Assembly: GCF_018398935.1 (NCBI RefSeq)
Contig: NZ_CP074694.1
Span: forward strand, 3,060,001-3,092,000
Source: Telmatocola sphagniphila
Lineage (GTDB): Bacteria > Planctomycetota > Planctomycetia > Gemmatales > Gemmataceae
Direction: 5' to 3'
DNA: 32,000 nucleotides
Each line of letters opens with the position of its first letter. Position 1 is the stretch's first letter. Of the stretch, positions 4,695 through 15,562 are shown in pieces. The position numbers and the translations under genes were made by a program. The notes under the pieces are model-generated. The model saw nothing but the letters and a program-made list of their open reading frames with translations, was not told the origin of the DNA and did no database searches.

Positions 4695-7600
4695 ATGGCC
4701 GTGAGCAGCGGTTTCAAACAGCAGTGCCCCAGTTGTGAGGCGTCAGTTCCCATCAAGGACGACTCGCTGGTTGGCAAAAAAATTGATTGTCCTAAATGCA
4801 AGTATCGGTTCGTAGTCGAGCAACCGGCTGCTTCTCCAAGCGACGACGAAGAAGAGAAAACCGAGAAGAAAGCAGCTCCCGTCAAGAATTCCAGCAAGGG
4901 TAAACCCCTCCCCCGTCGCGATGAAGACGAGGAAGAGGGAGGAGAAGCGAAGCCCGCGAAGAAAAAAGCCGGTTCGAACAATATGATGTTGGTCGGCGGC
5001 GGCCTCGGAGGTTTAGCTGTTATTCTGCTTATCGGCGCCTACGCCATGGGAATGTTCGGCGGCGAAGATAAACCGGTTGCGAGCAATAAGACCTCTACGA
5101 GTACACCGCCCCCCAGACCCGCTGTAACGCCCAGTTCGAACCCCTCGAATGAACAGCCTCCGGCTACAGAAACTCCTGCGGCTCCGACCGAACCGCCTGC
5201 GAATTCCACACCGACCGCTCAATCGGATCCCTCCGTTCCGGCTTCTTCAGGCGGCGATCCTACAAATCTGTTACCTAATGAAACTCAATTCGTGTTCCAT
5301 CTGAACATGAACAAGTTTTATGGTAGCCCGATCGGCAATCGGCTTTTTGCTTCCGAGACCAAGACTAAGGACTTCGTCTATCAGAATTTGGGGATCCCGG
5401 CAGACAAGATCAAGGAAGTCGTCGTCGGTGCACACACCATCGAAGGATGGAGCTTTACCGTCGTCCGAAGCTCGACTCCGTTCGATCCGGTGAAGGTCCG
5501 AAATTCTCTCGGTCTCGCTCCCGGTCATTCCTCCGTTCGAAATTACAAGTACAGCCTGATTAAGTACAATCCGCTCATCGAAACGCTGGCGGCCTATGTT
5601 CAGGACATTGTCAACGATAATCTGGGCGACTCCGATCTCAAATTGTTCCATGGGCTTCCCGATCGCAAGATCGCCGCTTTCCTCGTGGACACCTCAACCT
5701 TAGTGGTCGGCGATGAATCGGTTGTCACGAAGTTTCTCAAGGATGATCTGAAACCTTCGACCAAATCGACTTTAAGCACCGGCGCTCTTTCCGATTCCAA
5801 TGCTCCGGCTGGGGATGATTCCGAAGGTTCTGGTCGCGGTGGCAAAGGCGGTGGCGCTCCTCAGGGTCCCGGTAGCGGAGGCCCAACGCCACCTCCAGGA
5901 CCCGGAAGTGGAGGTCCGACCGCACCTCCAGGACCGAAGTCATTTCCTGGTCCAGGAGGCCCGGGCGGACCTGGCGGGCCCGGTGGTAGAGGGGGAAACA
6001 ACGTTCAGAATTACACAAACAATTCCAGCTATTTGACGATTTCTCCCACGCTGAAATTGATGATGAATCGATTGGAAGATTCCCCCACCGGAGTCGTGGC
6101 CAGTTGTGCCTTCTCTCTGCCGGATCTCTCCGGCCTGGGTGGAGCGGCCATGGGCGTGGTGAAGAATCAATTCTTACCAGGCAGTGATTCCGACCTCGTG
6201 AAGAAAAGCACCCCCGTCTTTGGATTCGTTCTGAAGGAGATTGATCAAAAACGGGCGGCTTTAAGCGTATTGCTGGAACAGAATGTCAAAGATGATGTCG
6301 CTCAGAAAATTGCGGCGGCGGGTAATCAATTTCTCAAACCGCTGATCGCCGCTTTGATCGAATCAGAATTCAACATTAAAGTGAAGCAAAATGGCGGCGG
6401 CCGCGGCCCAGGCGGCTTCCCCAACGGTCCCGGTGTGCCGGGTGGCCCGGGCGGCCCCGGAGGTCCGGGCGGTCCTGGCCGACCGGGTCAAGGCGGTCCT
6501 GGAAGTAATGCGCAATCCTATTCAAATCCGGATCAGGGTCAGGGTCCGGACTTAGAGAATCCTCTGCAAGGTAAAGGCTCGCCCCAAGTTCCTGGTCCGG
6601 GCGGCCCTCCCGGTGGTCCGGGTGGCCCTGGAATTCCCGGCGGTCCTCCTCCAGGTCCTGGCGTCCCCAATAGAAACGGTGGTGGACCCAATGGCGGGGA
6701 CAACCAAGACCCGAATGGATCTACCGTGGAGTTTACCAGCAATGGTCGAGTTGTTACCCTGACCGTCGAAATCGACTGGTCGCGAAATATTTTCGATGCC
6801 CGAATCGCAGCTATTCTTGATGGTAAAGTGGATCAGCAGCGGTCGAAAGCCATCCTACTGGCCCAGCGAGCTCACTGGACATCGTTGGCCAAGCCTCTGA
6901 AGGAATTCCAGCGAGTCGGCGAATTTCCATACGGGGCTTTCCCGCGAAAATCCAATCCAGACCGCTTCATGCTGCCTTTCCCGGCCGATCAGCGAGTCAG
7001 CTGGATGTGCGAACTTCTTCCCGCTCTCGGTTATGATGCTCTCTCCCGGGATATTTTCCGGGATCTTCCTTGGAATCACTCCTCGAACCTCAAAGCAGGC
7101 GTTCGCTGGATTCCGGAATTCCTAAGTCCGGCTCAGCCCAGTAACACCTGGCGAGTGGAACTGCCTAGCGTTCGGCATCAGGACCTGGGGGCTACGCACT
7201 TTGTGGGCCTCTCCGGTATCGGCCTCGATGCTGCAGATCTTCCGGATACTCCGGAGAATGCCAAGAAACTGGGAATCTTCGGCTACGATCGCAAGACCAA
7301 ATTCGCGGACATCGTCAATGGTGACGGCGCTGCGAACACGATCTTTGTAATGCAGGTGGCTCCAAATATTCCGCGTCCCTGGATTCGCGGCGGCGGTACG
7401 ACGGTACAGGGAGTTCCTGAAACGAACAGCATGGCTCCCTTCCGAGTCATGCAACCCGATCAACGATTTGGAAACTATGCGATGATGGCTGATGGTTCGG
7501 TCCGCTACATCACTTCCAATATCTCTGATGATGTCTTCAAAGCAATGGTGACCTACAAGGGGGGAGAGAAGCTTGCCGATCTCGATCAGGCTGCCCCCAA

Positions 7601-8594
7601 GGAAGATCCCCAAGGTGTCGAAATCAAAGCCAACGTTCGCAACTTGCGAGCGGGGGAATCGGTTTTGTCCGACTGGCGCGAACATGAAATTAAAGAGGTT
7701 TATCTGAAAGTTCGAACGCCAGGCGGCATTCAAAGTGAAGATATCAAGGATGGTAGAAGTATAGTAATCGAAAGTTTTTACAGCTGTCCCTCGATCAATA
7801 ACCCCATCTTCACCGTTCACATTGCTCCGACCGATTTCATCCTGGCCCTCGACGGTGATAATCAAGCGGATCTGGATCGCTTGATGGGAGCCCTGTCCAA
7901 ACGAGCGATCGCCCCGGAGAAAGTGGAAAAGAAGAAATACGGCAATAAGAACTGCCGCCGCTTCGAATTGCAGATGGCCAAAGGCCGTTATGCAAATTTG
8001 ATGTTTATCTCTGCGGGTAAAGTCGTGATTCTGGAAGTACCGATCGGACAAGTCAAGGATACCGATATCGAGACATTTTTCAGCTCAATCAGAACGGATG
8101 AGCCCAAGTTCGTTCGCGGTTGGCAACCCTTCGAACTTTCGCAGTCGGGTACCAAAGTCACCCTCGAAATGCCGGCTACTCCCGAGCAACTTTCCTCGGC
8201 CGCCAATCCGTTCCAGAAACTGTTCGTTTATCGCGATCGTTTCAACAAGGTAGGGGCTCAGTTCGAAGTCGAAATCGTCAGCGGTACTGAATACCCCGCA
8301 AACGACTACGATGGCAAGAAGGTCGAGAAAGAAATCGAATCGATGAAGCGGCCCGGAGTGGAGATCTATCAGATGGAACCTGTTCTAACGAATGAATTGC
8401 ACGGTTTGCAATTCCGGATGCGGGTTACCACGGTGGATAAGGACAAGAAAGAGAAAGTGGAAAATTCGGTCAACCGGATTTATCTCTTCAACAACACGAA
8501 GGTCCGGGTTCGAATCCGCTTCTCCGATCTGGCAACCGAAGCGGAAATCAAACGCTACATGAACTCTGTGAAGCTCGAACAGCCCAAGAATTAA
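4695..8594 (+). CDS. Giant (1299 aa) zinc-ribbon-anchored membrane protein with Gly/Pro elastomer-like tracts, a DUF1559-like domain and a tandem C-terminal domain pair
   Basis: GGAGAG SD at 4683-4688, 6 nt before the ATG at 4695. CPSC-x17-CPKC zinc ribbon (aa 11-36). One TM helix (aa ~96-121). Pro/Thr/Ser spacer. GPGG tracts. DUF1559-like strings 'THFVGLSGIGLDAA', 'DGAANTIFVMQV', 'MMADGSVRYITSNISDDVFKAMVTYKGGE'. Rho-independent terminator directly downstream. Confidence 0.85.
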   Translation: MAVSSGFKQQCPSCEASVPIKDDSLVGKKIDCPKCKYRFVVEQPAASPSDDEEEKTEKKAAPVKNSSKGKPLPRRDEDEEEGGEAKPAKKKAGSNNMMLVGGGLGGLAVILLIGAYAMGMFGGEDKPVASNKTSTSTPPPRPAVTPSSNPSNEQPPATETPAAPTEPPANSTPTAQSDPSVPASSGGDPTNLLPNETQFVFHLNMNKFYGSPIGNRLFASETKTKDFVYQNLGIPADKIKEVVVGAHTIEGWSFTVVRSSTPFDPVKVRNSLGLAPGHSSVRNYKYSLIKYNPLIETLAAYVQDIVNDNLGDSDLKLFHGLPDRKIAAFLVDTSTLVVGDESVVTKFLKDDLKPSTKSTLSTGALSDSNAPAGDDSEGSGRGGKGGGAPQGPGSGGPTPPPGPGSGGPTAPPGPKSFPGPGGPGGPGGPGGRGGNNVQNYTNNSSYLTISPTLKLMMNRLEDSPTGVVASCAFSLPDLSGLGGAAMGVVKNQFLPGSDSDLVKKSTPVFGFVLKEIDQKRAALSVLLEQNVKDDVAQKIAAAGNQFLKPLIAALIESEFNIKVKQNGGGRGPGGFPNGPGVPGGPGGPGGPGGPGRPGQGGPGSNAQSYSNPDQGQGPDLENPLQGKGSPQVPGPGGPPGGPGGPGIPGGPPPGPGVPNRNGGGPNGGDNQDPNGSTVEFTSNGRVVTLTVEIDWSRNIFDARIAAILDGKVDQQRSKAILLAQRAHWTSLAKPLKEFQRVGEFPYGAFPRKSNPDRFMLPFPADQRVSWMCELLPALGYDALSRDIFRDLPWNHSSNLKAGVRWIPEFLSPAQPSNTWRVELPSVRHQDLGATHFVGLSGIGLDAADLPDTPENAKKLGIFGYDRKTKFADIVNGDGAANTIFVMQVAPNIPRPWIRGGGTTVQGVPETNSMAPFRVMQPDQRFGNYAMMADGSVRYITSNISDDVFKAMVTYKGGEKLADLDQAAPKEDPQGVEIKANVRNLRAGESVLSDWREHEIKEVYLKVRTPGGIQSEDIKDGRSIVIESFYSCPSINNPIFTVHIAPTDFILALDGDNQADLDRLMGALSKRAIAPEKVEKKKYGNKNCRRFELQMAKGRYANLMFISAGKVVILEVPIGQVKDTDIETFFSSIRTDEPKFVRGWQPFELSQSGTKVTLEMPATPEQLSSAANPFQKLFVYRDRFNKVGAQFEVEIVSGTEYPANDYDGKKVEKEIESMKRPGVEIYQMEPVLTNELHGLQFRMRVTTVDKDKKEKVENSVNRIYLFNNTKVRVRIRFSDLATEAEIKRYMNSVKLEQPKN
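5815..6000 (+). repeat. In-frame Gly/Pro low-complexity tract 1 (GPGSGGPT / PGGPGG units)
   Basis: Translation: GSGRGGKGGGAPQGPGSGGPTPPPGPGSGGPTAPPGPKSFPGPGGPGGPGGPGGRGG. Degenerate tandem units at DNA level (ggtcc/ggagg/ccggg words). Confidence 0.8.
6390..6720 (+). repeat. In-frame Gly/Pro low-complexity tract 2
   Basis: Translation: NGGGRGPGGFPNGPGVPGGPGGPGGPGGPGRPGQGGPGS...VPGPGGPPGGPGGPGIPGGPPPGPGVPNRNGGGPNGG. Confidence 0.8.
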
Positions 8595-8615: not shown

Positions 8616-8645
8616 AGCCACGATGAATAATCGTGGCTTTTTTTA
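8616..8645 (+). terminator. Rho-independent terminator of the 1299-aa gene; hairpin shared with the convergent nadB
   Basis: agccacga (8616-8623) / tcgtggct (8631-8638): 8-bp stem, 7-nt loop, followed by TTTTTTATTT. The nadB stop codon (revcomp of 8643-8645) lies inside the T-tract. Confidence 0.75.
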
Positions 8646-10262
8646 TTTACCGAAGAGGTCCTGAATATCGGGACAGACCAGATGCGTTTTCCAATGATCG
8701 CTGGAAGTTGGAAAATCGCTGCGGAAATGCGTGCCCCGCGATTCCGTGCGCTTCAGCGCGGAATCGATCATTGCCCGGGCAACCGTCAGCAAATTCTGCA
8801 GTTCCCAGCCCTTCTGAGTGTCGAACTGCTTCACCAGAGCATAGCGGCACCAGAAATCGACATCCTGACGGGCTTCGGTCATCCGCTCCTTAGAACGGAC
8901 GATTCCCATCTTTCGAACCATCAAGCTCCGGAGAGAGTTGGTCATATCGTCGATATCCAACCATTGCTTGGCGTAAGGTTCGATTTCGAATTTGAACGCT
9001 GCGACCGAGTTTAGGACTCCTCCTTCGCGTACGGCACGGACAGCCCCGTGAGCGCAGAGAGACCCGTAGACCAAGCCCTCGATCAGACTATTGGAAGCCA
9101 ACCGATTCGCCCCGTGTAAACCGCTGGAAGTGACCTCCCCTGCCGCCCAAAGATTGCGAACGGAGGTCCGTCCAGTCTCGTCGACCACGATACCCCCGAT
9201 CATATAGTGGGCCCCGGGTCGCACGGGAATACGGTCCTTGGTAATATCCAGCCCGAAAGTCTTGCAAACTTTGGCAATTCCGGGGAATCTCTTATGAGTC
9301 ATCGCGGGATCGAGATGAGAAAGATCCAGATAGACGTTGGGATGTTGCGTGCGTTCCATGCATCGAAAAATTGCTTGCGAAACGATATCGCGGGGGGCCA
9401 ATTCCGCCCGAGGATCGTCCTTCAGCATGAATCGTTCGCCGTTCACATCGCGAAGGTAGGCCCCTTCGCCCCGGACGGCTTCGCTGATCAAATGGCGTGC
9501 CGATCCGGCGACATAAAGTACGGTCGGGTGAAACTGCATAAACTCCATGTCTTGGAGTTTCGCCCCCGCACGGTAAGCGGCGGCCATACCATCCCCTGTT
9601 GCCACGGGAGGATTGGTCGTCTCCCGGTAAACCATGCCGCAACCGCCCGAAGCCAGAATCACCTGGCGGGCCCAGATCATCACTTTTCCCATCGGCTCCT
9701 TGTAAACCAGGGCACCGAGACATTCGTTTTCTTTTGTCAGCAAATCGAGCGTAAACGTGCCATCCAGAAGTTCGATATTGGGAGCGGCCTTCGCCCGCTC
9801 GATAAGAGCCCGCATCACCTCCCAACCCGTGGCATCGCCTAAAGCGTGCACGATACGGCGATGGCTGTGTCCCCCCTCCCGGGTGAGGGCGAGTTCCCCA
9901 TTTTCGCGATCGAAAATCGTACCGAATTTGACGAGATCGGCGATTTGTTGCGGAGCTTCGCGAATCACCATCTCGACGATTGCCGGATCGCACAGCCCGG
10001 CGCCCGCGACCAGAGTATCATCAATGTGATTTTCGAACGTATCCTCGGGGGATAGAACGCCGGCAATACCTCCTTGAGCATAGGAGGAATTGCTTTCCCG
10101 AAGTTTGTCCTTGGTGATTAGCAGAACTTGTAAGTCACTGGGAATCTCCAGTGCGGCCCGGATGCCAGCGATGCCCGCTCCGATAATCAGCACATCGGCG
10201 AAGCGATGGTATTCGCGGCGGGTATCAAAAGAGACTAGAAATCTATTGGGAACCATACCCAA
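8643..10262 (-). CDS. nadB: L-aspartate oxidase
   Basis: 539 aa. FAD motif 'DVLIIGAGIAGIRAAL'. 'SSYAQGGIAGV', 'LTREGGHSHRRIVHA' and 'ESRGTHFRSDFP' are near-identical to conserved NadB blocks. Confidence 0.95.
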   Translation of the reverse strand: MGMVPNRFLVSFDTRREYHRFADVLIIGAGIAGIRAALEIPSDLQVLLITKDKLRESNSSYAQGGIAGVLSPEDTFENHIDDTLVAGAGLCDPAIVEMVIREAPQQIADLVKFGTIFDRENGELALTREGGHSHRRIVHALGDATGWEVMRALIERAKAAPNIELLDGTFTLDLLTKENECLGALVYKEPMGKVMIWARQVILASGGCGMVYRETTNPPVATGDGMAAAYRAGAKLQDMEFMQFHPTVLYVAGSARHLISEAVRGEGAYLRDVNGERFMLKDDPRAELAPRDIVSQAIFRCMERTQHPNVYLDLSHLDPAMTHKRFPGIAKVCKTFGLDITKDRIPVRPGAHYMIGGIVVDETGRTSVRNLWAAGEVTSSGLHGANRLASNSLIEGLVYGSLCAHGAVRAVREGGVLNSVAAFKFEIEPYAKQWLDIDDMTNSLRSLMVRKMGIVRSKERMTEARQDVDFWCRYALVKQFDTQKGWELQNLLTVARAMIDSALKRTESRGTHFRSDFPTSSDHWKTHLVCPDIQDLFGK

Positions 10263-10294: not shown

Positions 10295-13200
10295 CTACTT
10301 CGGATCCCCGGAACCGGAAGCCGATCCCGAAGTGGCCCGCTTGTAGGCGTCGTCGAAACCCGGAGGAGCGTTACCGCGGGTTCCGCGCTCAGTTTTGGAG
10401 TCGGAATTTCCTTCGAGCTTGATGGTTTCGCTGCCGCGATTGAGCATACTGGCCCCTTTGGAGCGGGAACCCGATTTCGCTTCCTTCTTTTCCAGCTCCA
10501 CCAGTCGCTGGCGTTCGCGGTTTAAGGCTTCTTCGGCCGATTTCAGGAACTGCTCGTACTGTTCGGGGGTCATTTCGACCTGTTTCAGCATTTCCTTGTT
10601 CGACTTATTTTTGCGGAAATCCTCCAACTGCAGTTCCGCGGCCTTGACCTTATTTTTAAGATCAGCCACCATCGGATCGATCTTATCCTCACCGCCTCCG
10701 GAAGCGGGATTGACTGGGAGTTCGCCCTTCAAATTGCCATCCTTGGGAGCCTTGCCGCCGAGTTTATTGCCTTCCTGATCCTTCTTGGCCAGTTCGCCCT
10801 TGTCCATCTTGGGATCTTTGGAATTTTTGGGATCGGCTTTAGGATCCTGTTTCGGATCCCCCTGGGCAGTATCCTCCTTGCCCTCTTTCCCTTTAGAAGC
10901 GGCATTATCGCCCTCTTTCTTGGCCGCGTCGTTCTTACCTTCCTTGCCTCTGGGTGCTGGCTCTTTGTCCTTGGGTCGATTTTGAGCCAATTCATCGGCC
11001 TTTTTCTTCAGTTCCTGCAGACCCTTCTGAACTTCCGGATCCTGCATCTGTTTGGCGAGATCCTGCATCATCTTCTGCATTTCAGGATCTTTCTTCAGCA
11101 GATCCTGAAGTTCCTTCGCGGCCTGTTCCTGCTGTTTCTGATCCTTGGCCTGTTGAGCCAGATCTTTTAAGTCGTTCTTTCGAGCTTGATCCATGGCGTT
11201 TTTCATCGCCTCTTCCAGGTTCTTCCGCTTTTCCGGATCCTTGGCCTGATCGAGCATATCTTTCATCATCTTGCCGGCCATGTCTCGGGTTTTAGGATCC
11301 TTCATGAGATCGGCGATATTCTGCTTCTGCTGGTCGGAGGATTTCTCGCCAGATTTCTGAGCAGAATCTTTCAGACTGTCCTGCCGAGCTTTATCGGCAG
11401 CATTCCGCAATTCCTGAGCGGCCTCGGGATTTTTCTTCTCCATCTGGTCGGCCAGTTTCTCGGCTTGCTGGCGATTTTTCGGATCTTTCAGCATCTCCTC
11501 GAGATCCTTTTTCGCCTGCTCGGTGGATTGGCCGCCGTCATTCTTTTCCGTGTTTCCAGTGGCGTTTTTCTGCGTCTTATCGCCGTCTTTGGGTGCGTTC
11601 TGGTTCGGATCTTTGTTCTCGGGCTTACTTTGCTTCTTGGTCAGACGGTCGACATCCTTTTCCATTTTCTCCTGGGCTTTGGCGTTATCGCGAGCCTCGT
11701 CCACTTTATTTTTCAAGTCGTTTCGCGTCTGATCGTTCGGGGCATTCTTTTCCCATTCTTTCGCTTTCTTCTCCGCCTCGGCTCTCAGCTTCTCATCGCG
11801 TAACAAGCGTTCGAGCCGGTCCTGCTTGGCTTTGTCGAATTTGGCGTCCTTACTGTTCATTTCTCGGTCGAGCTGATTCATCTCCTGCTGGAGATCAGGC
11901 TGTTCCGAGCCGCCTTCGTTCGATTTACCTCCCGACTGCTTCGTATTCTGTTTACCGGGCTCGTTTTTCGCCTGTTGATTGGCTGCGCGATTTTGCTGAG
12001 CCTGCTCCATTTTCTGAGCCGCTTCCTTCCCGGCCTGAGGATCGTTCTTTTCGAGGTTCTTCTGTTCCTTGGCTGCCTGCTCCTGATCGCGGGGGTTATT
12101 CGATTCGGCGTTTTTAGCAATCTGATCGACGTTTTCCTTCTGGCCTTTCTGAGCCGAATCCTTCATCTGTTTCTGGAAATCTTCCTTCTTCTTCTCATCG
12201 CCCGCGTTCTTGGCCAGATCGTCCTTCATCTTCTCGGCCATCTGGCGCGTTGCCGGATCCTGCATCAGTTTGTCCATCTCCTTTTTGCCCTCGGCCTGCC
12301 GATTGGGATCGTCCGATTGCATCTTGGAGGCGGCTTCTTTGAGATTATTTTCCCGGCCCTTATTCATGGAATTTTCGAGTGCCTGCTGCTGCTGTTGAGC
12401 ACCACCCTCACTCTTCTGATTAGCTTTTTCCTCCGCCAACTTCTGACCATTTTGCCGGGAATCCGGGTTCTGCATCTTCTGATCCAGATCCCGCTGCGCT
12501 TTTTGAGCCTCCTGGGGATCGGGGGATTTCGACTTCTTGGAAAGCTGATCGATATCCTCTTTCTCCTGGGCATTCTTCTTGGTTTGCTCAACATCCTTTT
12601 CAAAGTCTCGCTTCTTCTGGGGATCCTGGATGTCGTTCTTCATCTTGTCCAGTTCGTTCTGCATTTCCTGCTTTTTCTTCGGATCCCGTAACAGACGATC
12701 GACATCCTCTTTCTGCCGGCTATTCATCTTGTAGTCTTTGGAGGCGATTTCCCGGGAAAGTTCGCCCGGTTCGGGCGGAGTGCCTTGCTGGGAATTCTTC
12801 TCATCCGGTTTGCCCGGTGAACCGGGGCCCGATTCCGACTTCGACGGGTTCGACTGATCTTTCTTGGGATCAGCCGATTCCTTGGGCATTGGGGCGGTTT
12901 CGGATTTTTCGTCCGATTTGCGGCCGGGATCATTCTTTGTCCCGTCGGCCTTCGGCTGAGGATTACTTCCCTTGACGGGTTGCGATTTGGGACTTCCTGA
13001 CTCTCCGGGCATTGGGGACTGCTCCGGAGGATTGTTCGATTCCTTGCCCGATGGATCTTTTTTGGCCTGCGTATTCTTGTCGTTCAAAGCTTTCTGAATT
13101 CTGTCGGCCTGGCGCTGGAGTTCTTTATCCTTTTCGGATTCGCCACCGGATTCCGAACCTGGTTTTGTGTCCTTGTCGTCGACCCCTTTATTTTCCTTAT

Positions 13201-15481
13201 TCGGCATGGCCTTTGGGTCGGCTTTGCGGTTCTTTTTCTCAGCGCCGGGCTGATTATTGGAATTCTCCGAACCCGGATCGCGACTTTGCGTTTTCTGATC
13301 GTTCGAATTACCCTGGCCGGGATTCTTCCCAGGTTGATCCTGGGCATTCGGATCCTTCTTGGGCACCTCGGGCTGGCCGTTGGCATTTTTGGGTTCTCCA
13401 GGTTGATTCTCCCCGGGCTGTTTGGGCTCCGGCTGGGCCGGATCGCGCTTTTCTTCCTCGTTCTTCTTGTCCTGCTGCGCGTCGAATTGCTGCTTTTCCT
13501 TGGCGAATTCCTCGCGTTTTTTCTGTTGTTGCTGAACCTTGTCTGCCGCTTTTGCGGGCGCGAGGATCTTGACTTTCTGACGATTGGAATAGCCCCGGTT
13601 AGGCCCCGGCGGTACGTCGCAATTGTCGATGGCTTCGAGCCAGTACTCGATGATCATGCCTTCGGCGATCTGGAATTTGGGATCGAAGCCGCGGAGTTGA
13701 CTCAGTTCCACCTGATCCTTATAGTTCAGGAGAGTGGGGTAGGAATTATCCTTCTCTCGCTTGAATTCCTTCCCATCGCGATAGGGTTTTTCCTTCAACG
13801 CTTCGACGCGCGGCGCGACCACTTCCATTCTCAGATTCATACGGCTGATGCCGTGGTCGTCGGTGGCGATTCCTTCGACTTTCAAGGTGTCGTTCAAAGG
13901 CAACTCGATCATTTCTTCCTTGGGCAAAGTGATCCGAACTTGAGGAAGTTCATCGCGGAGCACGCGAATAACTAGCGGCCGGGGATCGGATTCCCCTTCT
14001 CCCGTGGTGGGAGTAAATCGAATTACGCAGGTTTTATCTTCGTCGAGTTTGGGCAGCTTGAATTTCAGGGCCATCGGTTGATCTGGGATCGGTTCGCCGA
14101 CAACCTCCAGAGTCGCCTTGTTGATCTCATCGGGAATTAGAAGCCGCCCGGATTTCACAGGCCGATTACCATAGGCCGTGATCGTCACTTCGGTGCCTCG
14201 GATAGCTTCGATGTCCGGAGTTTTCTCATTTTCCAGCATCTGCATTTTCCAGCGCAGATATTCGGGATACTGGAACTTCAAATCGAACTTGGTGAAAACC
14301 GGCTTGGCATCCAGAAGCGCGATCCGATATTTCTGCGGGTCGCTGTTTCGATCTCCTTCGGTGGTGGTGAAGAAAATTCGATAGCCGCCGTTCTTTTCCA
14401 TGGGGAATCGGAATAGGAGTGCGTCCGGACGATCGGCCGGAATCTCGGCATCATAAGTTCGCGGCTGCCCTTCGATTTGCAGGTAGCCGCTTTTCACCGT
14501 GCGGTTGGTGCTGGCCAGCAGTGTAACTTCCGTGCCGTAGTAGTTGAAGAGATTCGGGTCGTTGGTCTTTTCATCCGGCTTACCGAGATAAGCGGGCAGC
14601 TTGTAAATCACATCGAATCCGGTCAAAATCGGAATGATTTTGCAGGTGATGTGATGTTTGGGTGTCTCCACGCCAGCGGCGCGAAGCTGGTAATCGAAGC
14701 CTTTACGAACCTGATTCCCTTTGACGGTGATGCCCCAAAGTCGGCGATCATCAACGGAAACGTCCAGGGCGCGATCTTCGAAGTTTTCGGGATCCTCCGG
14801 ATTGTACCAGATGCGAAGTTTGGCAGAGTCCGGATCGGTCGCTTTGGGAATCCGGCCGAGAATACGAACCTCGAAACGTATGTCCTCCCCAGAGAAGACT
14901 GTGGTATCGCCTTCCTTAGGAGTTTCCTGCACAAGATCCGTACGGGTCGGTGGCAGGAAGAAAACAACTGCCGCGCCCAGCGCAAAGAAGCCGGCGAGGC
15001 AGGCCGTCCAGAGGAAGGATTTCGCCTCGCCAATTTTGGTCAGGTCGGCCTGCTTCAGATCTTTGGCGGCTTTAGCACTGAGAGCGACTTTGATGGACGG
15101 GGCAACCTTTTCATCCTCGTGCAAGTCAATCCAGTTCACCACACTATTTTTGTGATCGGCGATGGCCTCTTCAACTTTACGCGCCGCATAGTAGGGATTG
15201 ATGGTGTTGCGACTTTTGCGAAACAGCTGGATGTAGGCATAGATCCCAGATATAAGCAGGAAGCAACTCAAGGCCGCCCAACCAACACCCGGCTTCGTGG
15301 AAACGTAGCGGTCGATGAGTAATGCGACAAAAAGAAATAGGAAGAACGAAGCCAGTACAGTCAGCGAAACCGAGAGGATATCGACCAGACGTATCCTCTT
15401 GCGAACTTCTTCGATCTGTTTGCCAACAAATTCTTCGTATTTAGACGCATTTGCCTTCGGGGCGTCGAGCAGCGTGGCCAT
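10295..15481 (-). CDS. Giant (~1730 aa) 3-TM membrane protein: repeated beta-rich extracytoplasmic modules plus a ~950-aa K/E/Q/D/N/P polyampholyte tail (DUF4175-like architecture, from memory)
   Basis: ORF 10295..15511 begins at a TTG. The ATG at 15481 (MATLLDAPK...) is preferred and sits ~47 nt downstream of a TTCAAA-N16-TATAAT promoter-like site. TM helices: ILSVSLTVLASFFLFLFVALLI, WAALSCFLLISGIYAYIQLF, FLWTACLAGFFALGAAVVFFL. Internal module repeat: GTEVTLLASTNRTVKSGYL / GTEVTITAYGNRPVKSGRL. Confidence 0.85.
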   Translation of the reverse strand: MATLLDAPKANASKYEEFVGKQIEEVRKRIRLVDILSVSLTVLASFFLFLFVALLIDRYVSTKPGVGWAALSCFLLISGIYAYIQLFRKSRNTINPYYAARKVEEAIADHKNSVVNWIDLHEDEKVAPSIKVALSAKAAKDLKQADLTKIGEAKSFLWTACLAGFFALGAAVVFFLPPTRTDLVQETPKEGDTTVFSGEDIRFEVRILGRIPKATDPDSAKLRIWYNPEDPENFEDRALDVSVDDRRLWGITVKGNQVRKGFDYQLRAAGVETPKHHITCKIIPILTGFDVIYKLPAYLGKPDEKTNDPNLFNYYGTEVTLLASTNRTVKSGYLQIEGQPRTYDAEIPADRPDALLFRFPMEKNGGYRIFFTTTEGDRNSDPQKYRIALLDAKPVFTKFDLKFQYPEYLRWKMQMLENEKTPDIEAIRGTEVTITAYGNRPVKSGRLLIPDEINKATLEVVGEPIPDQPMALKFKLPKLDEDKTCVIRFTPTTGEGESDPRPLVIRVLRDELPQVRITLPKEEMIELPLNDTLKVEGIATDDHGISRMNLRMEVVAPRVEALKEKPYRDGKEFKREKDNSYPTLLNYKDQVELSQLRGFDPKFQIAEGMIIEYWLEAIDNCDVPPGPNRGYSNRQKVKILAPAKAADKVQQQQKKREEFAKEKQQFDAQQDKKNEEEKRDPAQPEPKQPGENQPGEPKNANGQPEVPKKDPNAQDQPGKNPGQGNSNDQKTQSRDPGSENSNNQPGAEKKNRKADPKAMPNKENKGVDDKDTKPGSESGGESEKDKELQRQADRIQKALNDKNTQAKKDPSGKESNNPPEQSPMPGESGSPKSQPVKGSNPQPKADGTKNDPGRKSDEKSETAPMPKESADPKKDQSNPSKSESGPGSPGKPDEKNSQQGTPPEPGELSREIASKDYKMNSRQKEDVDRLLRDPKKKQEMQNELDKMKNDIQDPQKKRDFEKDVEQTKKNAQEKEDIDQLSKKSKSPDPQEAQKAQRDLDQKMQNPDSRQNGQKLAEEKANQKSEGGAQQQQQALENSMNKGRENNLKEAASKMQSDDPNRQAEGKKEMDKLMQDPATRQMAEKMKDDLAKNAGDEKKKEDFQKQMKDSAQKGQKENVDQIAKNAESNNPRDQEQAAKEQKNLEKNDPQAGKEAAQKMEQAQQNRAANQQAKNEPGKQNTKQSGGKSNEGGSEQPDLQQEMNQLDREMNSKDAKFDKAKQDRLERLLRDEKLRAEAEKKAKEWEKNAPNDQTRNDLKNKVDEARDNAKAQEKMEKDVDRLTKKQSKPENKDPNQNAPKDGDKTQKNATGNTEKNDGGQSTEQAKKDLEEMLKDPKNRQQAEKLADQMEKKNPEAAQELRNAADKARQDSLKDSAQKSGEKSSDQQKQNIADLMKDPKTRDMAGKMMKDMLDQAKDPEKRKNLEEAMKNAMDQARKNDLKDLAQQAKDQKQQEQAAKELQDLLKKDPEMQKMMQDLAKQMQDPEVQKGLQELKKKADELAQNRPKDKEPAPRGKEGKNDAAKKEGDNAASKGKEGKEDTAQGDPKQDPKADPKNSKDPKMDKGELAKKDQEGNKLGGKAPKDGNLKGELPVNPASGGGEDKIDPMVADLKNKVKAAELQLEDFRKNKSNKEMLKQVEMTPEQYEQFLKSAEEALNRERQRLVELEKKEAKSGSRSKGASMLNRGSETIKLEGNSDSKTERGTRGNAPPGFDDAYKRATSGSASGSGDPK
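10700..13560 (-). repeat. Low-complexity polyampholyte coding region with degenerate super-repeats
   Basis: About 950 codons almost devoid of hydrophobic residues. Seven copies of a [DE]x[LM][LM][KQR]DPxx[RK]Q..K[LM]-like motif (RLLRDPKKKQEMQ, KLMQDPATRQMAEKM, RLLRDEKLRAEAEKK, EMLKDPKNRQQAEKL, DLMKDPKTRDMAGKM, DLLKKDPEMQKMM, KQMQDPEVQKGL). Four copies of (K/E)(E/K)(D/N)(V/I)D(R/Q)(L/I). Confidence 0.85.
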
Positions 15482-15534
15482 GCGATAGTCTCTCTCGATG
15501 AATCCGGCCAATAATCCGGGGATGATACTAATTA

Positions 15535-15562
15535 ATTATAGTTCGGCGTCCCAGGATTTGAA
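15535..15562 (-). promoter_or_regulatory. Sigma70-like promoter candidate for the giant minus-strand gene
   Basis: Minus strand reads TTCAAA (15562-15557), then 16 nt, then TATAAT (15540-15535). It overlaps the perfect palindrome TAATTAATTA (15529-15538) and lies in the 100-bp gap between the psuG stop and the giant gene. Confidence 0.35.

Follow-up and report, generated by a model that had tools for sequence, protein, structure and literature searches.

The window studied here is a 32,000-nucleotide stretch of the planctomycete Telmatocola sphagniphila (contig NZ_CP074694.1, positions 3,060,001 to 3,092,000). One gene on its minus strand (10295..15481; the parts of the gene are given below in window coordinates and lie on the same strand) encodes a membrane protein that is likely 1,728 amino acids (aa) long. 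The gene is a lineage-expanded variant of an uncharacterised, widely conserved envelope protein family of the Gemmatales and is not categorically new. With a probability of about 40%, the protein is read as an inner-membrane-anchored, envelope-spanning tether or spacer of adjustable length that would follow the logic of TolA and TonB. The tether is suggested because the anchor with its loop and the distal domain are conserved, whereas the middle is variable in length and sequence and yet charge-neutral. An earlier note, made from the letters of this DNA alone, had described a giant membrane protein with a polyampholyte tail that could act as a spacer or ruler. The description agrees with the three transmembrane (TM) helices and the charged tail reported below, and a spacer or ruler remains the best functional idea.

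The family is large and is concentrated in one lineage. A word-indexed search with the N-terminal 663 aa returned 20 relatives. All of the source-named ones are Gemmataceae, the best are 46-48% identical, and no relative exceeds 48% identity to the window protein. A profile search of 1.84 billion cluster representatives matched 14,748 proteins at E <= 1e-3, of which 2,178 reach E <= 1e-30; the top 150 matches are up to 2,110 aa long, with a median of 1,202 aa. In reference genomes, taken as one per species, 164 relatives were detected, and the best 80 of these are almost all Gemmataceae or Gemmatales. Reference-genome relatives include those of Zavarzinella formosa DSM 19928 (1,706 aa), Limnoglobus roseus (~1,840 aa), and Gemmata algarum (1,561 aa). 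When the TM-plus-loop module was searched, only Gemmataceae fragments were returned, with no bridge to other phyla at the sensitivity reached. The word-indexed search with the tail alone gave one match; low complexity swamps the candidate list. A literature search found no paper describing this family.

All of the Gemmatales family markers are present in the window protein, namely INPYYAA, KNSVVNW.DL, EYWLEAxDN, and the C-terminal domain (alignments A1, A2, and A5). The protein falls in a Zavarzinella-like subclade, which possesses an extra immunoglobulin (Ig)-like domain and many repeat units. A tail absent or unconserved in close relatives would have counted against the earlier note; instead, the tail occurs in every full-length relative, and its composition, motif, and C-terminal domain are conserved.

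Protein lengths recorded for this family in databases are unreliable, as the split gene of the closest relative shows. The closest relative, P0001, is 1,161 aa long; its contig shows a frameshift split, and the next piece, of 454 aa, is dense in 'MMQDPK' and has the same C-terminal domain end. This split orthologue (1,161 + 454 aa) is located at L001 (6001-10792, the same contig as L006), where nadB is split too (146 + 389 aa), and these splits look like an indel error in a long-read metagenome assembly. Typical copies of the Gemmataceae family are also found at loci labelled Alcaligenaceae (L058, L062, L076, and L080) and Bacteroidales (L079). Such non-planctomycete labels on contigs of metagenome-assembled genomes are likely due to mis-binning or mislabelling.

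The membrane anchor is made up of three helices. Kyte-Doolittle hydropathy places them at about aa 30-58, 66-88, and 154-177, and AlphaFold2 (AF2) models the TM segments as helices 12-59, 66-94, and 154-175. TM1 and TM2 form a predicted hairpin (15218..15394), and TM3 follows at 14951..15022. Between TM2 and TM3 is a helical loop of aa 89-153 (15023..15217), predicted to be cytoplasmic, that contains the motifs INPYYAA and KNSVVNW.DL. This loop is the most conserved part of the whole protein, and in the family alignments N95, P96, A99, A100, E104, K111, N112, S113, and V115 are invariant columns. The N-terminus has 6 lysine and arginine residues and the loop of aa 89-153 has 11, versus 1 in the short loop of aa 59-65. 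Because these residues are concentrated in the first two segments, the N-terminus and the aa 89-153 loop are most likely cytoplasmic. The chain would then leave the cytoplasm after TM3, and everything beyond it, including the tail, would be extracytoplasmic, which is the topology that had been proposed earlier from the positive-inside rule.

An Ig-like stalk follows the anchor. The first 650 aa were modelled with AF2 from an alignment with 11 relatives (alignment A2), and the model has a mean predicted local distance difference test (pLDDT) score of 84.7. It contains the three helices, the helical TM2-TM3 loop, and four beta-sandwich domains. The sandwiches (aa 181-281, 286-390, 396-508, and 514-640; 13562..14941) are Ig-like, have pLDDT values mostly of 84-95, and account for the beta-rich modules of the earlier note. 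The third one is an extra copy restricted to the Zavarzinella-like subclade and is, in the family alignment, a duplicate of the preceding one. The invariant EYWLEAxDN motif closes the stalk. A Foldseek comparison of the N-terminal model with the PDB returned only generic tandem Ig ectodomains, e.g., LILRB, KIT, and neurofascin.

The tail is made up of aa 646-1728. It is 1,083 aa (3.25 kb) long, longer than the ~950 aa first given; 77% of it is K, E, Q, D, N, P, A, or G, 41% is charged, and the net charge is +9. On sequence and model evidence, the tail is modular and is predicted to consist of a disordered linker, short helices capped by Asp-Pro (DP), a second disordered linker, and a conserved C-terminal domain. 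Linker 1 (aa 646-904; 12770..13546) is rich in P, K, Q, E, S, G, and N, is 5% hydrophobic, has a net charge of 0, and is probably disordered, as judged by composition. It corresponds to the P/G/N/Q-rich start of the tail described previously, at 259 aa instead of ~280 aa and with a broader composition. Linker 2 (aa 1502-1601; 10679..10978) is K/G/D/P-rich and is predicted to be disordered, with AF2 pLDDT values of 30-45. The AF2 tail model covers aa 1186-1728 and was built with four relatives (alignment A3); it includes units R3-R6 of the repeats described below, and R1-R2 (aa 905-1185) are outside the model. Two of its segments are below pLDDT 50, at aa ~1285-1316 and ~1502-1601.

The C-terminal domain (aa 1602-1728, ~127 aa; 10298..10678) is matched by the family profile at E = 1e-27 (alignment A5). 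The domain profile matches 172 of the 210 relatives that are >=1,000 aa long. In the AF2 model, two helices (aa 1603-1627 and 1639-1669, pLDDT 75-84) are followed by a loop, and the chain closes with the PPGF..AY+.(F)T motif. Compared with Pfam and with PDB sequences, the domain profile gave nothing significant. The domain had been missed in the first reading of the sequence. The window protein ends in a Ser/Gly-rich stretch, versus the usual basic '...EKK' of its relatives.

Between these conserved ends, the middle region differs widely among family members. From the Ig stalk to the C-terminal domain, the chain measures 357-1,340 aa across the family, with a median of 573 aa; the 956 aa of the window protein rank ninth of 142. 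The sequence of the middle region is not conserved, yet its charge balance is kept, with family means of 0.187 for K+R and 0.191 for D+E. At the position of linker 1, relatives have unrelated low-complexity sequence, e.g., Met/Gly-rich sequence, and the middle regions of some contain Met/Gly-rich or tandem 'GNMGDPMNPMQQP' linkers. Met/Gly-rich tracts ('GMQGMQGMP') take the place of the P/G/N/Q linker in P0021 and P0121 (~aa 700-900), and about five tandem 'QQPGNMGDPMNPM' units do so in P0109 (~aa 690-770). The repeat copy number ranges from 0 to 16 across the family and tracks protein length (Spearman 0.55).

The helical repeat region (aa 905-1501; 10979..12769) contains six DP-capped units, as judged from profile matches, Smith-Waterman comparison, and the AF2 model. 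The earlier note had counted seven copies of a '[DE]x[LM][LM][KQR]DP...' motif in the tail. The repeat is real, and its count is lower: the strict [LM][LM][KQR]DP pattern occurs 4 times, or 5 times if D[PE] is allowed, and the longer '[DE].[LM][LM][KQR]DP..[RK]Q' occurs 3 times, so that seven copies need looser matching. A second motif, (K/E)(E/K)(D/N)(V/I)D(R/Q)(L/I), occurs exactly 4 times, as had been reported. These counts were never reached in 5,000 composition-matched shuffles of the tail, where the means were 0-0.03, and the DP dipeptide is found 25 times versus 7.1 expected. When a profile was made from five copies, a sixth emerged, and the iterated family profile gives six units with the consensus AKEDLEELAKDGDPKKREAAKKKLEEMAKNAKDPQARK. 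Five profile units of ~38-42 aa lie at about aa 920-961, 1062-1103, 1215-1257, 1320-1359, and 1382-1423; a sixth unit matches most weakly, and where it falls depends on the profile (1451-1489 or 1435-1471).

Divided into full segments, the region consists of R1 (aa 912-1056), R2 (1057-1209), R3 (1210-1316), R4 (1317-1378), R5 (1379-1447), and R6 (1448-1501), all within 10979..12769. Smith-Waterman scores between the six segments are z = 6-10 above shuffles for most pairs, which, together with the motif counts, bears out the claim of a repeat as opposed to random low complexity. A ~100-aa super-unit is present three times, at aa 902-1000 (E = 1e-15), 1044-1141 (6e-7), and 1196-1297 (9e-32). The super-repeat of ~100-130 aa proposed earlier is thus seen in the first three units, which are embedded in these super-units, and not in the last three, which are shorter (62-71 aa). 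Relatives have one strong super-unit copy each, and therefore the ~100-aa unit was triplicated in the lineage of the window protein. Tandem Repeats Finder, run on the DNA, found no relevant tandem repeat in the gene. Only a degenerate 42-nucleotide family of 8 copies with 62-76% identity is left at the DNA level, and for these reasons the duplications are taken to be old.

The helical region appears to be a chain of short helices. AF2 models aa 1186-1501 as helices of 12-33 aa that are broken at DP or NP turns, with pLDDT values of 80-90, and each modelled unit combines a pair of short helices (12-17 aa) with a longer one (19-33 aa). The longest run free of P and G in the whole helical region is 52 aa, E+K+R make up only 42% of this run, and E-to-K pairs at i+4 are mildly enriched (0.069 versus 0.046). 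The helix lengths, the DP and NP breaks, and the 52-aa limit rule out a single alpha-helix domain. Accordingly, the single helix or bristle imagined in the earlier note gives way to a modular tail with short helices. Apolipoprotein-like membrane-binding amphipathic helices were set aside, as only 14% of the region is hydrophobic.

The closest resemblance in structure databases is to designed proteins. Compared with PDB sequences, the helical-region profile matched designed helical repeat proteins, namely DHR14 fusions (5h7c, E = 2.7e-11) and also 5cwh. Foldseek with the tail model gave weak matches only, the best to designed repeats and others to spectrin and 14-3-3, and none was decisive. As in HEAT/armadillo-like solenoids and designed helical repeats such as DHR14, the consensus 'AKEDLEELAKDGDPKKREAAKKKLEEMAKNAKDPQARK' reads as paired short amphipathic helices with Asp-Pro caps. 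The likeness is read as an idealised helix-turn-helix sequence in common and not as ancestry. Typical solenoids differ in having a hydrophobic content well above the 14% of this region, which makes stable packing doubtful here, and the modelled region may be a weakly packed helical chain instead of a rigid solenoid. The Pfam HEAT and ARM models matched neither the window protein nor five relatives with many repeats, and one faint HEAT_2 match in P0009 (E = 0.027) was below the cutoff. On their hydrophobic faces, the repeat helices are enriched in methionine, with 28 Met in the 597 aa of aa 905-1501. Met-rich periplasmic segments can bind Cu(I) or serve as flexible binding surfaces.

In the proposed tether, the Ig stalk and the polyampholyte and helical middle would place the C-terminal domain at a distance of tens of nanometres from the cytoplasmic membrane. 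At that distance, the domain would bind a distal partner, for which peptidoglycan, the outer membrane, and an outer-membrane protein are candidates, and the conserved cytoplasmic loop would link the anchor to an inner partner. The reach of the protein would be tuned in evolution by the gain or loss of repeat units and linker. Balanced charge would keep the spacer soluble and prevent it from sticking to charged envelope polymers.

This arrangement of an anchor, a long spacer, and a C-terminal binding domain would amount to the logic of TolA and TonB attained with unrelated parts. TolA is anchored in the inner membrane and spans the periplasm with a long, charged helical region rich in K, A, E, and D; its small C-terminal domain touches outer-envelope partners. 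The window protein has the same design but differs in possessing three TM helices where TolA has one, as well as four Ig-like domains and disordered linkers, which TolA lacks. In TonB, a spacer rich in proline and charged residues connects the inner-membrane anchor to the C-terminal domain, and periplasmic reach is length-dependent. This plan of anchor, spacer, and C-terminal domain is again shared, whereas the spacer of the window protein has ten times the length and consists largely of helical repeat in place of Pro-Glu/Pro-Lys. No Pfam or NCBIfam match to TolA domains or the TolA family profile was found in the window protein, and none was found with the C-terminal profile; the same holds for the TonB_C domain in the window protein and the C-terminal profile. 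Linkage to tolQ/tolR or exbB/exbD is not conserved over 56 loci, in which one relative has a divergent MotA_ExbB gene.

The tether may matter particularly in the Gemmataceae, given their enlarged periplasm and deeply invaginated cytoplasmic membrane (PMC5394234). A bolder form of the idea, which is speculative and on the whole unlikely, makes the protein a Gemmatales-specific ruler or tether across this wide, invaginated periplasm. The number of repeat copies and the linker length (357-1,340 aa) would determine, or adapt to, how far the membrane lies locally from the wall. In this scheme, the C-terminal domain would act as an undescribed envelope-binding module, and the Met/Leu-lined, DP-capped helices would form a new, weakly packed repeat class that extends under load.

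Several observations weigh against a tether. No conserved neighbour suggests an envelope machine, and nadB, the L-aspartate oxidase gene, is the sole conserved one. The C-terminal domain has no match among known families that bind peptidoglycan or the outer membrane, and, being mostly two helices and a loop, it could equally be an oligomerisation element. The near-invariant F of its terminal motif is A in the window protein ('KRAT'; window 10298-10350, aa ~1709-1728). The AF2 tail model has a predicted template modelling (pTM) score of 0.34 and an alignment of only 5 sequences, and the mutual arrangement of its helices is unreliable. With 14% hydrophobic residues, the helical region could be a folded rod or a floppy chain. 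The topology, finally, is a prediction from sequence.

A doubtful alternative is that the tail acts as an entropic bristle, a hydrogel, or an ion buffer. It would then be a partner-less, charge-balanced periplasmic brush that spaces the envelope, excludes macromolecules, or buffers cations. The charged fraction of 41%, the near-zero net charge, the two predicted disordered segments, and the low hydrophobicity would all suit a brush, as would the linkers, which conserve composition and not sequence across the family. However, a pure brush needs neither a C-terminal domain conserved in 172 of 210 long relatives nor a conserved repeat motif with defined short helices, and a net-neutral chain is poorly suited to be a cation sink. 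The cation sink and the hydrogel of the earlier note are disfavoured in the same way, as the conserved ~127-aa C-terminal domain favours a specific distal function.

The strong conservation of the aa 89-153 loop, with its invariant INPYYAA and KNSVVNW.DL, could also be explained if the protein were a transmembrane sensor. The Ig domains and helical repeats outside would bind a ligand or sense the state of the envelope, and the loop would signal to a cytoplasmic partner; the Ig stalk does resemble receptor ectodomains. This role is quite improbable: Pfam and NCBIfam reveal no recognisable output domain, no regulatory neighbour is conserved, 65 aa would make a small output module, and a middle of 357-1,340 aa would be unusual in a sensor.

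Charged helical repeats with N-terminal TM anchors occur in the cytoplasm in proteins of the FimV/HubP and EzrA types. For this reason, and with the topology being a prediction, a cytoplasmic scaffold of reversed topology was considered, in which the repeat tail would organise proteins as FimV/HubP-type tails or EzrA helical repeats do, but it is very unlikely: the placing of K and R speaks for an N-terminus inside and a tail outside, the four Ig-like sandwiches that come immediately after TM3 suit the extracytoplasmic side, and the tail is neutral, versus acidic in FimV/HubP.

The gene is a testable candidate for envelope spacing, and it may bear on how planctomycetes of the Gemmata type form and maintain an enlarged periplasm and a deeply folded cytoplasmic membrane. 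It recurs in almost every Gemmataceae genome recovered. Two of its modules are new to curated libraries, the ~38-aa DP-capped helical repeat and the C-terminal domain of about 125-127 aa. If the protein is only a space-filling brush, it is a conserved yet ordinary low-complexity envelope protein.

The relation of the family to DUF4175 (PF13779), to which the overall layout had been compared earlier, is distant. In DUF4175/TIGR02302 proteins, two or three TM helices at the N-terminus are combined with beta-rich domains and with a long region of low complexity that is predicted to lie outside the membrane. The window protein has this layout, with three TM helices, an N-in K/R bias, and a 1,083-aa low-complexity tail. 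Its Pfam matches are sub-threshold, and that to DUF4175 scores 11.0 bits (E = 0.11) versus a gathering score of 27.3 and covers model positions 193-327 of 825, in the Ig region only. Among the 13 aligned family members of alignment A1, 3 match DUF4175 at E <= 0.01 (best 3.1e-8), and family matches reach at most model positions 193-361 of 825, within the Ig-like domains. The orthologue P0003, 48% identical to the window protein, passes the DUF4175 threshold (33.8 versus 27.3 bits), and another family member is labelled 'DUF4175 family protein' by NCBI. Contact with Pfam DUF4175 and Big_7 is confined to the Ig region, and the DUF4175 match does not extend to the TM/loop module, the helical repeats, or the C-terminal domain. 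NCBIfam gave no family at E <= 1 for the window protein and no TIGR02302 match, and a tblastn search of plasmids for a bona fide DUF4175 protein gave no match. On sequence evidence, the family is best described as a remote DUF4175 relative that shares the layout and is not a demonstrated member.

DUF4175/TIGR02302 proteins with a link to the envelope or division include AdvA of Acinetobacter (PMC7481262) and the product of a CenR-regulon gene in Rhodobacter (PMC9275681). In Azorhizobium, an exopolysaccharide and infection phenotype is described, as cited in PMC6842974. These phenotypes of distant proteins hint at a role in the envelope or in cell division.

The gene itself is delimited by one long minus-strand open reading frame (ORF) that spans 10295..15511 from a TTG or 10295..15481 from an ATG. 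The ATG at 15481 is the likely start and gives 1,728 codons plus a stop codon (10295-10297). It is preferred because all orthologues start 'MAT...' and because a sigma70-like site is located upstream. This promoter candidate, TTCAAA-16-TATAAT (15535..15562, minus strand), has 10/12 matches in a consensus scan and lies ~55 nucleotides upstream of the ATG; the count of sigma70-like sites in the region is not above shuffles.

Opposite the tail, antisense ORFs of 170-240 aa are found on the plus strand (window 11186-13975), e.g., 11186-11803, 11975-12691, and 13286-13975. These ORFs over ~11-14 kb are not genes. They are Leu/Phe/Ser-rich mirror images of K/E/Q/D codons and arise because the codons of the tail are purine-rich. 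The same codon bias produces an AT skew of about -0.5 over 11-13 kb of the window.

The downstream neighbour is nadB (8643..10262, minus strand), 32 bp away on the same strand. Among 50 complete related loci, nadB is located <=500 bp downstream on the same strand in 26 (including L013, L024-L026, L031, L033, and L035), and ~7 more have it behind frameshifted copies of the gene. No convincing terminator was found between the gene and nadB, and the two are probably co-transcribed. The earlier remark that the gene sits next to core metabolism is thereby sharpened: the pair is a case of conserved synteny, with no functional link seen between the two genes.

Upstream, no neighbour is conserved over 56 loci, and Ser/Thr kinase, VWA-like, and MotA/ExbB-like neighbours are sporadic. 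A divergent 177-aa MotA/ExbB-family protein is encoded upstream in one relative only (L002 7176-7709, minus strand). A divergent VWA-like protein is encoded upstream in six loci of the Zavarzinella-like subclade, e.g., L008 6715-7908 (minus strand), with DxSxS, and L001 4986-5822 (minus strand). Neither a MotA/ExbB-like nor a VWA-like gene adjoins the gene in the window.

The remaining window genes are housekeeping genes, which comprise psuG-like, rhomboid, ymdB-like, rny, rplM-rpsI, and pyruvate dehydrogenase genes. The window has no tRNA and no Rfam matches. A second giant low-complexity protein, of 1,299 aa, is encoded on the plus strand at 4695-8594. Besides a zinc-ribbon-like CxxC...CxxC motif at the N-terminus, it contains a hydrophobic segment and two long tracts of Gly and Pro (GPGGPGGPGG...), after which comes a C-terminal globular part; a 42%-identical stretch is found in one related locus, L019.

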